From positions 20,378 to 84,377 of the forward strand of contig JAPOYA010000013.1 in NCBI GenBank assembly GCA_026706815.1: a DNA stretch of 64,000 nucleotides. Reading direction: 5' to 3'. Below, in pieces: positions 34,111-37,558 of this stretch. How positions within the stretch are numbered: position 1 is the first letter of the stretch; each line of letters starts with the position of its first letter. Source of the stretch: Acidimicrobiaceae bacterium. Lineage in GTDB: Bacteria; Actinomycetota; Acidimicrobiia; Acidimicrobiales; Aldehydirespiratoraceae. A program made the translations under genes and the position numbers. The notes below the pieces were generated by a model. That model was not told the DNA's origin and did not search any database. It was given only the letters and a program-made list of their open reading frames with translations.

Positions 34111-35220
34111 GTGGATCTGCGGCTGAGCAAAATCCTGAGTCGGGTGGGACTCGTCACAGACGGTTGGGCGGTGAGCCAGCCTCAACACAATCGGTGGCTC
34201 ACCGCCGATATCTGGGAACTGATCCAAGATGATCACCATCTCGTCGTGAAGCGATTCGCCCGCCGACGTGACGGGGGCACCACAGCGTTCACCCAGCACT
34301 GGTCACATAGCTGCGAGTCTCCCGATCACTGGAATTACTGGCTTCGGGAGGCTCTGGCCTACCAATCCGGTGTCGTTGGGTGCTTCGCCGAAGAAGGCTT
34401 ACGGGCACCGATTTGCATCGGTGTAGACATCGCCGACGAGGACGCGGTTGTCGCAATGGAATTCGTGGACGGTACACCGGCGGAGCGCTGGGACATCGAC
34501 ACCTATGCCGATGCAGCAAGGCGCCTGGGGGCAGCACAAGGCAAACTTGCTCCCGGCGGGGGGCTCCCAGACATTGAGTGGTTGTCTCAAGGTTTCTTGC
34601 GCGACTACAGCACCGAAAAACCTGTGATTTGGGATTTGCTCGACGACGATCACTCATGGAACCAAGCACTCGTCGCAGAGAACTTCCCGCCGACTTTGAG
34701 GTCGGCCGCCAATGAGTTGCACGCACACCGCCATCGCCTCTGCTCGTTGCTTGAGTCGCTTCCACGCACCCTGTGTCACCTTGACTTCTGGACCAAGAAC
34801 CTGATCCAGGCTGACGACGGGAGCTTTGTTCTGCTGGATTGGGGTTTCGTCGGCATCGGAGCACTCGGCGAGGACGTCGGGAACCTCGTACCTGACGCAG
34901 CATTCGACCTTTTCATCGAACCACATCAACTTCGGGAACTTCGCCGGACCGTGCTTTCGTCGTATGTCGACGGTCTCAATGATTCCGGTTGGAGCGGTGA
35001 TCCAAGAGTCGTCGAGTTGGCGATGGCCGCCTCGGCGGTCAAATACGACTGGCTCACACCATTGATGCTCGAACGGGCCTCAGCTGGCCAGCACCGACGT
35101 TACGGCGGGTTGGAAACGGTCAACTCGGCAGAGTTGTACGCGAAGCGAGGCGCCGCGCTGCTCGACAATGCCCAACAAGGTCTCCACGCCCTTCAACTTG
35201 CCGAAGAACTAGCACTCTGA
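34111..35220 (+). CDS. aminoglycoside-phosphotransferase-fold (APH/choline-kinase-like) kinase
   Basis: Has the catalytic loop CHLDFWTKNLI (HxDxxxxN) and metal-binding LLDWGF. Confidence 0.65.
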   Translation: MDLRLSKILSRVGLVTDGWAVSQPQHNRWLTADIWELIQDDHHLVVKRFARRRDGGTTAFTQHWSHSCESPDHWNYWLREALAYQSGVVGCFAEEGLRAPICIGVDIADEDAVVAMEFVDGTPAERWDIDTYADAARRLGAAQGKLAPGGGLPDIEWLSQGFLRDYSTEKPVIWDLLDDDHSWNQALVAENFPPTLRSAANELHAHRHRLCSLLESLPRTLCHLDFWTKNLIQADDGSFVLLDWGFVGIGALGEDVGNLVPDAAFDLFIEPHQLRELRRTVLSSYVDGLNDSGWSGDPRVVELAMAASAVKYDWLTPLMLERASAGQHRRYGGLETVNSAELYAKRGAALLDNAQQGLHALQLAEELAL

Positions 35221-35233
35221 ACACCTGGCGGGG

Positions 35234-35605
35234 CTAGTGAAGCAGTCTGTCTATGGCCTCGATCAGGGGTTCGTTTCTGGCGGGTTTGCGGAGTACTTCG
35301 TCGGCTCCTGCGGTGCTGGCGAGCCCGGTGGCGAACTCTGGACTCTGGTGCATGCCACCCGCGGACAGGGCCACGATCCCGGCACGAGGGCAGGCCCAGC
35401 GCAACGCCTTTATGTACTCGATCGCGGTCATTTTAGGCATCACGGCCTCGGTCACAACCACGTCCGGTTTCCGAGAAGCTGCAAGCTCCAGGGCCGTTTC
35501 GCAGCCGTCGGCTTCAATCACCTCATAGTCCCCAGAAGCATCCAACAAACGCTTCAACGCGTACCGCACTCCCGGGTCGTCGTCAGCCACCAACACGGTC
35601 GCCAC
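35234..35605 (-). CDS. stand-alone receiver-domain protein with Glu at the phospho-acceptor position
   Basis: CheY-like: DDD at residues 8-10, LSAGG and RKP are present. The conserved phospho-Asp position reads PDVVVT-E-AVMP (Glu53, GAG at 35447-35449). Confidence 0.8.
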   Translation of the reverse strand: MATVLVADDDPGVRYALKRLLDASGDYEVIEADGCETALELAASRKPDVVVTEAVMPKMTAIEYIKALRWACPRAGIVALSAGGMHQSPEFATGLASTAGADEVLRKPARNEPLIEAIDRLLH

Positions 35606-35608
35606 TAT

Positions 35609-36625
35609 TCAGCCTCCTAGGGCTTCGTCTGCTTGGTGTCGGGGGATCAGGACTTGGAACGTTGAACCCTCACCATAAGACGACTCCGCGGTGATCCTGC
35701 CCGACCATCCGTGAACTTGGTCGTAAGCGATGGTCAGGCCCAGACCGGCGCATCCGTCGGCCGATTTGGTGGTGAAGAACGGGTCAAATACTTGGGCGAG
35801 CACATCATCGGTCATGCCGATGCCCTGGTCGGCCACAGTGACACTGAAGTAGCTGCCAGCTGAAACTCCCTGCACCCGCGCCTGGGCCTCATCCAATGTT
35901 TGGGCTGAGAGTCCCACCGTGATCTCGCCCCCACGTTTCATGGCCTGCGCTGCATTGGTGAGCAAACTCGTGAACACCGAGTCGAACTCTTCACGGTTCA
36001 CCGAGATCACACCGGACGCGTCGTTGAAGCGGGGCACTATCGTCACATCGTTTCCGACCGACTTTGCTACCTCAGCGATCACACCGGACAACCCCCGCGA
36101 TGGCACAATCTCTTCTGCCTCGCCGAATCCGCCAGCGGGATCTGCCAATGAACTCTCGAGAATCTTGCACCCCCGCTCTGCCGCCAAGAGGATGCGGCCC
36201 ATATTCTCCTTCTGCGGTTCACTATCGGTTTGGTCGACTCCCAATTGCGCCAACGTGACGATCGGCTGCATCACATTGTTGAGCTCCCGGGTGAGTCCAC
36301 CGGCCAGTTGGCCCATCGCGGCCATCTTGTATGCCTCGCCGATCTGTTCCTCCATCGCCTGACGTTCTTGAATCGCTTCTTTGAGCTGTCCGACGGTATG
36401 GGCAAGCCGGTCGTTGAGGTGAGCTACTTCCAGCCAGCGCCGCACCGCGAACCAGGAGGTGACCAGAGCGAGCGTTGGCACAGCGGCAAGAAGCTCGACG
36501 AGCAGCCATCCTTCCTGGTCACGCGTGAAGTCCGAGACCGTCTCGTACAAGTCGATACTGACAAAGAAGAAGAAGATGACAATGCAGGCAATGGCACCGA
36601 TGATCATGTCTCTTCGCGGGTTCAT
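35609..36625 (-). CDS. membrane histidine-kinase-like protein with Arg at the H-box histidine position
   Basis: Has two N-terminal TM helices and a coiled coil. The H-box region reads KMAAMGQLAGGLT-R-ELNNVMQPI (Arg113, CGG at 36287-36289). The N (LLTNAAQAM), G1 (DQGIGM), F (FDPFFTTK) and G2 (GLGLTI) boxes are intact. Confidence 0.8.
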   Translation of the reverse strand: MNPRRDMIIGAIACIVIFFFFVSIDLYETVSDFTRDQEGWLLVELLAAVPTLALVTSWFAVRRWLEVAHLNDRLAHTVGQLKEAIQERQAMEEQIGEAYKMAAMGQLAGGLTRELNNVMQPIVTLAQLGVDQTDSEPQKENMGRILLAAERGCKILESSLADPAGGFGEAEEIVPSRGLSGVIAEVAKSVGNDVTIVPRFNDASGVISVNREEFDSVFTSLLTNAAQAMKRGGEITVGLSAQTLDEAQARVQGVSAGSYFSVTVADQGIGMTDDVLAQVFDPFFTTKSADGCAGLGLTIAYDQVHGWSGRITAESSYGEGSTFQVLIPRHQADEALGG

Positions 36626-36715: not shown

Positions 36716-37558
36716 TCAAGTTGAGGGGCAGGTGGCGACTACTTCGCCGCACAGATAGGCCCAGAAACCGTCGGCTTGGGTCGACCAACGGCGGAACGCG
36801 TCGGAGATCTCCTGCAGTTCTGCTCGGGTGGAGAGTCCGTGGTCAACGGCGTGGCGCGCGAAATCGCTGTCGATGACTCGTACTGCCCACATCTCACCCC
36901 AGAACGCCCGCCCTTGTGCGTCGGCATGGCTGACGCTGCTGGTGGTGACTTCAGGGTCGGCAAAGCCAGCTGCTGTCACCCAGGACAACAAATTCCTACC
37001 CGCGTCGGGTTCCCCGCCGTTGGCCCTGGCCACCTGGTGATAGAGCTGTCGCCAGCGAACGATGGCCTCGGTCACCGGAGCGTGGACCATCGTCTCATAA
37101 TCGGAGTCGCGCACCGCCACGATACCCCCGGGTTTCAGCACCCTGCGGGCTTCCCGCAGGGCCCGGACAGGCTCTGACAGATGTTGGAGTACTTGATGGG
37201 CGTACACCACGTCGAAGCTGTCGTCGCTCCACGGCAGGTCGTAGGCCGAACCGACTTCGAACGTCGCATTGCCGATACCGCGGTCTGCAGCGTGATTTCG
37301 AGCAGCGTCGGTCATCTCCGCGGATGCGTCCAGTCCAACCACTCGTCCGACCCGTCGAGCCAAACCGCTTGTGATAGTGCCGGGGCCGCAACCCAAATCG
37401 AGCAGAACCATGTCCGGTCGCAGGCGGGGCAGCAGAAAACCCGCGCACGCCTCAGCGGTACGCCGCATGTATGACCCCACGATCACCTCGTGGTACCCGT
37501 GCGTGTAGCGCTCGCCGCTCGGTTGGTGCTCGGTTGATGAGATCGGATCGTCAGTCAA
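36716..37558 (-). CDS. class I SAM-dependent methyltransferase
   Basis: Has motif I VLLDLGCGPGT and the later Rossmann-fold motifs. Confidence 0.8.
   Translation of the reverse strand: MTDDPISSTEHQPSGERYTHGYHEVIVGSYMRRTAEACAGFLLPRLRPDMVLLDLGCGPGTITSGLARRVGRVVGLDASAEMTDAARNHAADRGIGNATFEVGSAYDLPWSDDSFDVVYAHQVLQHLSEPVRALREARRVLKPGGIVAVRDSDYETMVHAPVTEAIVRWRQLYHQVARANGGEPDAGRNLLSWVTAAGFADPEVTTSSVSHADAQGRAFWGEMWAVRVIDSDFARHAVDHGLSTRAELQEISDAFRRWSTQADGFWAYLCGEVVATCPST

Follow-up and report, generated by a model that had tools for sequence, protein, structure and literature searches.

A two-component pair of marine Acidimicrobiia in which Arg and Glu occupy the phosphotransfer positions

The subject of this work is a pair of adjoining genes in a stretch of 64,000 nucleotides (hereafter, the window) from an Acidimicrobiaceae bacterium (assembly GCA_026706815.1, contig JAPOYA010000013.1, positions 20,378 to 84,377 of the forward strand). 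Their products resemble the sensor kinase and the single-domain receiver of an ordinary two-component system, with an Arg in the position of the phosphorylated His of the former and a Glu in that of the phosphorylated Asp of the latter. The two genes are arranged as follows:

35609..36625, reverse strand: kinase-like gene (open reading frame), 338 amino acids, with two transmembrane helices, a coiled-coil linker, a DHp hairpin and a HATPase_c domain
35234..35605, reverse strand: single-domain receiver gene (open reading frame with a Response_reg match), 123 amino acids

The GTG start of the receiver gene is placed 3 nt (one codon) past the TGA that ends the kinase gene, in the same frame. For comparison, loci from nine family lineages, 16 orthologues from the same genus and two metagenomic loci were collected, and in 26 of them the receiver directly follows the kinase (L001-L008, L089-L104, L105 and L106). 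All 26 keep the 3-nt spacing and the same junction, in which a single sense codon separates the kinase stop (mostly TGA) from the receiver start (positions 35603-35611 of the window); this looks like an arrangement for translational coupling. The receiver is in the frame of the kinase at most of these loci, the exceptions being L007, L093, L094, L097 and L099. Read-through of the kinase stop would yield a hybrid kinase-receiver protein; the frame, however, is not strictly conserved. This natural read-through fusion (kinase-W-I-receiver) was given as input to AlphaFold2 (AF2), with a paired and unpaired alignment and with the DHp domain modelled as a monomer, and the resulting model was used for secondary-structure positions only.

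The C-terminal part of the kinase-like protein is recognized by Pfam as HATPase_c (residues 214-329, 63 bits for a cut-off of 26.4). The Pfam HisKA model gave no match to the protein and, because the His-bearing relatives are missed too, this silence is a trait of the family, whose DHp is divergent, and not an effect of the substitution. NCBIfam models (VirA-like, CckA, AtoS and ZraS) align over residues 72-334 with scores far under their cut-offs, thus placing the protein in the transmitter superfamily, in no named equivalog. Along the sequence, the following elements could be located (pLDDT being the local confidence score of the model):

36548..36604, reverse strand: first transmembrane helix, around residues 8-26 (hydropathy maximum 2.7; AF2 helix 3-35), with Arg4-Arg5 ahead of it on the cytoplasmic side
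36449..36505, reverse strand: second transmembrane helix, around residues 41-59 (hydropathy; AF2 helix 42-88), running directly into the signalling helix (RRW, 62-64)
36242..36337, reverse strand: DHp helix α1, residues 97-128 (AF2 helix), with the H-box GGLT-R-ELNNVMQPI, which aligns with the H-box of CckA and ZraS
36287..36289, reverse strand: codon CGG of Arg113, at the phospho-His column (read from the DNA; structure alignments)
35636..36010, reverse strand: CA (ATP-binding) domain, residues 206-330 (HATPase_c; N, G1, F and G2 boxes; pLDDT 80-88)

An acidic outside loop, about 14 residues in length, joins the two transmembrane helices, both of which have Arg residues next to their cytoplasmic ends. 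The Arg113 codon, which has acc (Thr112) and gag (Glu114) at its sides, falls in the middle of helix α1 in the model, and in alignments to solved structures it is paired with the phospho-His of CckA (5idj, GGVAHDFNN) and of ZraS (9jfj, AAGVAHEIRN). The phospho-accepting His is therefore absent from the DHp α1 of this protein, as it is from its whole clade: Arg is found at this column in 35/35 clade members, and His in 15/15 relatives. The rest of the catalytic machinery has been kept. The E/DxxT/N motif, as defined for kinase/phosphatase function in PMC12963549, is present as R-E-L-N-N, with E114 invariant and N117 conserved in at least 90% of the sequences, and the residues that make up the N, G1, F and G2 boxes (N224, D266/G268/G270, F280/F283 and G294/G296) do not vary within the family. 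Indeed, Glu114, Asn116/Asn117, the docking helix QPIVTLAQL, N224, G1, the F box FDPFFTTK and G2 are invariant or nearly so in both the Arg and the His clades, which also share the motif W..L.E.LAAVP in the region of the second transmembrane helix and the signalling helix. Only two positions of the kinase separate the clades perfectly, namely 113 (His to Arg) and 156 (Val to Leu, in DHp α2), and four others (65, 95, 300 and 303) do so almost perfectly.

Two possible substitutes for the missing acceptor were considered and rejected. A His elsewhere in the protein does not qualify, since none is invariant across the Arg clade (31/35 members have H69, 29/35 have H76 and 33/35 have H305, the last of which is the 'HGG' position common in CA domains), and this excludes the alternative His for which the first-pass annotation of this DNA, made from the letters and open reading frames alone, had left room. 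The neighboring Thr112 was discarded as well, being Ile or Val in several orthologues (L091, L101, L102 and L103). With the fold of a histidine kinase and no phospho-donor His, the protein can be classed as a pseudo-histidine kinase sensu Collins and Childers, a term for a fold that lacks at least one kinase function (PMC12632262).

The receiver gives a clear match to Pfam Response_reg (62 bits, with a cut-off of 30.2) and is modelled as a (β/α)5 fold of five strand-helix units with a pLDDT of 80-90. Its active site is composed of the following residues:

35576..35584, reverse strand: Asp8-Asp9-Asp10, the acidic metal-binding pocket after β1 (D9 and D10 in 38/38 Glu-type receivers)
35447..35449, reverse strand: codon GAG of Glu53, at the phospho-Asp column and the end of β3, within PDVVVT-E-AVMPKM
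35363..35365, reverse strand: Ser81 (LSAGG), the Thr/Ser position, at the end of β4 (38/38; model)
35285..35287, reverse strand: Lys107, after β5 and followed by Pro108 (38/38; invariant in both clades)

Glu53 aligns with the phospho-Asp of CheY-type receivers of solved structure (6er7, 'vtmDivMP'; 6swl, 'lltDirMP'), and in the model Glu53, Ser81 and Lys107 lie at, or just past, the ends of β3, β4 and β5, respectively. The phosphorylatable Asp is absent, being Glu in 38/38 members of the clade and Asp in 6/6 relatives. As a recognized receiver domain devoid of that Asp, the protein may be assigned to the pseudo-receivers, or aspartate-less receivers. Glu is the commonest replacement for the Asp in this class (26% of aspartate-less receivers, PMC4395418). 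The protein is atypical in that the four other active-site residues are all kept, given that the second acidic residue is retained in only 29% of aspartate-less receivers (PMC4395418). The Glu clade has its own set of replacements, gathered around the active site (D+1, Val to Ala; D+2, Asn, Phe or Tyr to Val; T+1, Gly to Ala; and K-1, Gln to Arg). A further segment after β4, GGMHQxPE(F/L)A (receiver residues 83-92, around 35330-35359 of the window), is near-invariant in the Asp and Glu clades, His86 included, and has no match in any curated family. It is a hallmark of these small single-domain receivers, and this α4 segment may well form the output face. All the sequence features on which the first-pass annotation had based its proposal, that is, Arg and Glu at the two acceptor columns, the intact N, G1, F and G2 boxes, the 3-nt junction, the acidic triplet at 8-10, the Ser of LSAGG and the Lys of RKP, were borne out in this way. 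The phosphorylation-independent signalling that it proposed on top of them is a matter of interpretation and is considered further below.

Searches for related proteins revealed a compact family, with members of about 335 residues that fall into two groups according to the acceptor residue, Arg or His. Identity to the window kinase ranges from 100% to 50% in the Arg group and from 39 to 52% in the His group, and the receiver orthologues recovered by the protein search all carry Glu. A profile search over 1.84 billion representatives indicated that the family is small (about 16 full-length clusters), and, to judge by the source names, its records come from uncultured Acidimicrobiaceae or Acidimicrobiia metagenome-assembled genomes, where they are annotated merely as "ATP-binding protein" or "histidine kinase". 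The pair is carried by 16/18 species of the genus and was not found in other genera of the family (107 species), nor in even samples of the class and of the phylum (400 genomes each). Of the loci returned by a metagenome scan with the family member P0028, just two were relevant, L105 (His/Asp) and L106 (Arg/Glu), and a contig scan with the family alignment returned 80 loci, all of them unrelated at about 30% identity and picked up through peptide patterns common to all CckA-like kinases.

A key observation was that the two acceptor positions vary together. Among the 26 loci with both genes, 19 combine Arg with Glu and seven combine His with Asp, with no mixed case. Within the Arg/Glu loci, the residues are encoded by different synonymous codons (CGG, CGA or CGC for Arg, and GAG or GAA for Glu) and, therefore, selection acts on the amino acids. 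The strength of this selection was estimated from the median pairwise ratio of non-synonymous to synonymous substitutions (dN/dS, Nei-Gojobori) within the genus, for pairs with 0.05 < dS < 1.5. The values were 0.135 for the kinase and 0.143 for the receiver, and those of a canonical PhoR-like pair of the same 18 genomes, used as a yardstick, were 0.127 (kinase) and 0.085 (receiver). Among the parts of the kinase, DHp α1, which bears the Arg, shares the lowest value with the signalling helix (0.060 each), followed by the transmembrane sensor (0.096), the CA domain (0.120) and the inter-domain linker (0.258). A clade of marine Acidimicrobiia thus keeps the pair under normal purifying selection, as a working signalling pair. 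That orthologues would conserve Arg and Glu, under purifying selection rather than in random decay, is what the first-pass annotation had anticipated, and the His/Asp orthologues that might have exposed a sequencing error do not occur within the clade. In one receiver of the genus (L097), a 1-nt insertion in a C/G homopolymer at codons ~11-12 (GACCCCGGGGG, compared with GACCCGGGGG in L096) shifts the N-terminal frame; as the draft of that genome is split into 430 contigs, the probable cause is a fault of assembly rather than a pseudogene.

This evidence also makes it possible to dispose of the notion that the substitutions are sequencing or assembly errors, or that the genes are decaying: the Glu codon is indeed one base away from an Asp codon, and the L097 frameshift might be taken as a sign of decay, but the idea retains practically no credit and is refuted by the codon variation and the dN/dS values, given that the same residues recur in 19 independent assemblies with differing synonymous codons, that CGG is two changes from any His codon, and that a dN/dS of about 0.14 in both genes, equal to that of the canonical system, goes with the presence of the pair in 16/18 species.

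The phylogeny of the kinases placed the moment of the switch with some precision. The Arg kinases form one clade nested among His-bearing relatives, with a support of 97/85 in a maximum-likelihood tree of 45 kinases and of 95/86 in a second tree. The stem of this clade is bounded by His/Asp sisters on one side and, on the other, by P0028 (locus L002), an early branch that is already Arg/Glu and retains ancestral flanking residues; therefore, both substitutions took place on the stem branch. This branch amounts to 0.041 of the 8.76 substitutions per site of the family tree (0.47%), so that the chance of an unlinked single Asp-to-Glu change falling on it is about 1 in 200. After the switch, neither the Arg (35/35) nor the Glu (38/38) has changed over 3.46 substitutions per site. 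Both substitutions thus affect the acceptor columns, have a single origin on the same branch and are fixed under a purifying selection typical of a working system.

The family provided a second, independent case of His loss. Two kinases (P0172 and P0189) carry Gly and a third (P0199) carries Ala at the acceptor site; their genes are found at:

L141:3001-4014
L143:3001-4029
L142:585-1571

These three proteins form a clade with a support of 100/99, and well-supported branches stand between it and the Arg clade. They show an eroded H-box (GELRR, KVAS) and long branches (0.58 for the stem, 1.06 for P0199). The two longer contigs contain no receiver gene or remnant after the kinase, which sits there between ssb and a gyrA/parC-like gene; the third contig is just 1.9 kb long. 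This lineage keeps the N, G1, F and G2 boxes nonetheless. The loss of His was thus followed by two routes: in one, there is no adjacent receiver and the H-box has decayed; in the other, the receiver has been kept, with an invariant Arg and a Glu. Since the ATP boxes are retained in both, their retention requires no phospho-acceptor and is no evidence for one.

Regarding the surroundings of the pair, a class I S-adenosylmethionine (SAM) methyltransferase gene (36716-37558, reverse strand) adjoins it upstream in the window and in about half of the genus. A gene for a class I SAM methyltransferase is also found downstream of the pair in the distant His/Asp locus L005 (L005:5453-6196). A meaningful linkage was considered and dismissed as an apparent coincidence, because the two proteins match only in the SAM-binding core (31% identity over 145 residues). 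On the other side, an APH-family phosphotransferase gene (34111-35220, forward strand) converges with the receiver gene, with 13 bp between the stop codons, and occupies this position in only 4/16 loci of the genus. The whole genome encodes six receiver domains over the Pfam cut-off, one of them belonging to the Arg/Glu pair. The repertoire of two-component genes is very small, and includes a PhoR/PhoP-like pair (C37) and an MtrB/MtrA-like pair (C65).

From the comparison of these sequences, the pair probably no longer passes phosphate in the usual way. The model that we favor, on balance and with moderate conviction, is that it descends from an ordinary His-Asp system and would now signal by regulated protein-protein binding instead of phosphotransfer. 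The input path, the docking helix, the ATP site and the DD/Ser/Lys pocket of the receiver are intact, and the two proteins are co-inherited and co-substituted. The receiver would still dock on DHp α1, a helix that is unaltered except for the Arg and a Leu/Met switch; with docking surfaces that have not changed, it should sit there as in the His/Asp ancestors, leaving Arg113 opposite Glu53. Arg113 would then point into the acidic pocket formed by D9, D10 and E53, and binding might possibly involve an Arg113-Glu53 ion pair, which would occupy the former space of the phosphoryl group and the Mg2+ ion and which is conceivable because each side chain is longer than the His or Asp it replaced. In this model, the input from the membrane helices, together with the nucleotide state of the CA domain, would set the capture or release of the receiver. 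Once released, Glu53 would act as a built-in phosphomimic in contact with Ser81 and Lys107, and the free receiver would act on some target through the conserved α4 face (GGMHQxPEFA). Glu is the phosphomimic commonly found at the D position, where it is assumed to render the regulator CmrT constitutively active (PMC12632262, PMC12548384). The notion of a co-evolved pair is supported by the position of the Glu-clade changes of the receiver, around its active site, and by the switch of both acceptors on the same branch.

Several considerations weigh against signalling by binding. Binding alone does not obviously need the catalytic Glu114, the Mg-binding Asn224, the G1 and G2 boxes or the metal site of the receiver, and in the characterized pseudo-kinases PsmA and DivL the ATP sites are degraded or weak (PMC12963549, PMC4211667). 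A receiver Asp that is lost is, in general, most often replaced with Glu (PMC4395418), which needs no Arg partner. Because there was one switch, all the Arg/Glu loci stem from a single event, and the co-variation counts as one evolutionary observation. The fusion model, with a predicted template modelling score of 0.42 and a pLDDT below 50 in the DHp domain, does not allow an Arg-Glu contact to be read from it. Finally, across the family loci there is no conserved neighbor or downstream target, and the neighbors are only partly common within the genus.

A different possibility is that the two proteins are uncoupled, that is, that the Glu53 receiver is constitutively 'on' and is set by its expression level, as has been suggested for CmrT, while the Arg kinase has a separate ATP-dependent job and the adjacency of the genes is an inherited operon layout. 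Natural Glu receivers are constitutively active, as reported for CmrT (PMC12548384) and reviewed in PMC12632262, and the Gly/Ala kinases, which persist with their ATP boxes and no adjacent receiver, indicate that a receiver-independent role of the kinase is possible. This explanation seems unlikely, however, when it is considered that a single 0.5% portion of the tree contains both substitutions, that the Arg has remained invariant at the old donor site, with no drift, that the docking helix α1 is the most constrained part of the kinase, and that the 3-nt junction, with its apparent translational coupling, is present in all 26 Arg/Glu and His/Asp loci. Furthermore, it is the lineage with no receiver that has eroded its H-box, and not the Arg clade.

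Alternatively, the phosphorelay might have survived on new atoms. The CA domain would phosphorylate Arg113 to give a phosphoramidate, as phospho-His is, with Glu114 as the base, and the phosphoryl group would be passed to Glu53 as a γ-glutamyl (acyl) phosphate held in the Mg/Ser/Lys pocket. Such a relay would best explain the perfect conservation of the catalytic, nucleotide-binding and metal-binding residues, since everything but the acceptors has been kept (Glu114, Asn117, Asn224 and the G1, F and G2 boxes in the kinase; D9, D10, S81 and K107 in the receiver). It would also suit the fact that both acceptors were swapped together for their chemically nearest longer analogues, with an Arg that is strictly conserved where the His site of the pseudo-kinase PsmA drifts (PMC12963549), and that the same branch saw the remodelling of the lining positions D+1, D+2, T+1 and K-1; the phosphorylation of Glu, for its part, is chemically known (noted in PMC4395418). 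On the contrary, neither a phospho-Glu receiver nor the phosphorylation of Arg by a GHKL/HATPase_c fold has a known precedent, and Asp-to-Glu receivers serve as phosphomimics that cannot be phosphorylated (PMC12632262, PMC12548384). An unchanged docking geometry would also leave too little room, barring some rearrangement, for a phosphoryl group in addition to the two longer side chains. The main support is removed by the Gly/Ala lineage, which keeps the same ATP boxes with neither an acceptor nor an adjacent receiver, and the proposal must be regarded as quite improbable.

We also give little credence to the idea that the pair tunes another two-component pathway by binding a canonical kinase or regulator encoded elsewhere in the genome, in the manner of DivL or RetS. 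There are precedents, as both DivL (PMC4211667) and Osp (PMC9430884) act on CckA, and with six receiver domains in the genome the network is small. However, the genome contains no paralogue of the kinase family that could form heterodimers (the next HATPase matches, with E = 1e-9 and 1e-6, cover the CA domain only), and no other two-component gene is consistently linked to the pair.

Both pseudo-histidine kinases and pseudo-receivers are well-recognized categories; the former make up about 0.9% of HisKA domains and the latter about 2% of receivers (PMC12632262). In the literature searched, no cognate pair is described that combines His-to-Arg with Asp-to-Glu replacement and has otherwise intact catalytic machinery, and a 2025 review states that the switching on and off of bacterial pseudo-receivers "remains a mystery" (PMC12632262). 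Among the known systems, the CckA/NtrB/AtoS/ZraS-type kinases, with an H-box of the form A-H-E/D-x-N-N, are the closest relatives of known function (30-34% identity over DHp and CA), and CckA (5idj) and ZraS (9jfj) are the best structure matches. Unlike the window protein, these kinases possess the phospho-His and have larger sensory or receiver modules, whereas the family described here consists of a minimal kinase of about 335 residues with two transmembrane helices and what appears to be a translationally coupled single-domain receiver. At the other end, the plant pseudo-response regulators (PRR/TOC1), to which the first-pass annotation had likened the receiver, do have Glu in place of the receiver Asp (PMC12632262); the likeness is an analogy limited to this one residue, since these are eukaryotic multi-domain clock proteins with no such kinase partner.

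Closer parallels are found among the bacterial proteins. PsmA, a hybrid histidine pseudokinase of Streptomyces (PMC12963549), is actinobacterial, lacks the H-box His, is conserved in its lineage and works without a phosphorelay. However, its His site drifts (Glu, Asp, Gln, Val or Tyr), its D/ExxT/N motif has been lost and its ATP-binding residues are not conserved, in contrast with the invariant Arg, the ExxN motif and the full set of ATP boxes of the window kinase. Osp of Rhodobacter sphaeroides (PMC9430884) is a receiver-like single domain that, unphosphorylated, binds the transmitter domain of the kinase CckA; unlike the window receiver, it keeps the Asp and lacks the DD and Lys residues, its target kinase is active and the genes are unlinked. 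Glu at the D position is shared with the Glu-type aspartate-less or pseudo-receivers in general (PMC4395418, PMC12632262) and, in particular, with CmrT of Clostridioides difficile (PMC12548384), a natural receiver in which the Glu is also residue 53 and has been interpreted as an inherent mimic of phosphorylation. The CmrT gene shares its operon with that of a sensor kinase, an uncommon arrangement for characterized atypical regulators. In this case, the regulator is a DNA-binding protein of the OmpR type with a DGD pocket, and its kinase, CmrS, is taken as ordinary and serves a second, canonical regulator; the window receiver, in turn, has no output domain, keeps DD, Ser and Lys intact and has as its sole kinase partner a protein without the His.

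The binding model set out above has precedents for signalling by docking alone in Osp-CckA (PMC9430884) and in the DivL-DivK system of Caulobacter crescentus (PMC4211667). DivL has a histidine kinase fold with the phospho-His replaced and no kinase or phosphatase activity, and its DHp domain holds a single-domain receiver (DivK~P) at the usual docking face, with Tyr550 placed against the phosphorylation site of the receiver. The differences are nonetheless considerable: the residue in DivL is Tyr and not Arg, DivL binds ATP analogues weakly, the genes are no operon pair, and DivK is not co-substituted, as it keeps its Asp and must be phosphorylated by other kinases in order to bind. Nearly all the characterized pseudo-kinases and pseudo-receivers are orphans; this family gives a pseudo-receiver with an obvious co-evolved partner and shows, in the Gly/Ala lineage, that the same family took two routes after the loss of His. 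The change is minimal, one residue per protein with the other catalytic machinery intact, and the close His/Asp relatives are natural wild-type controls with which to address whether docking alone can be a signal, what the ATP site of a pseudo-kinase is for, and whether an Arg-Glu pair replaces the phosphotransfer contact or carries phosphate.

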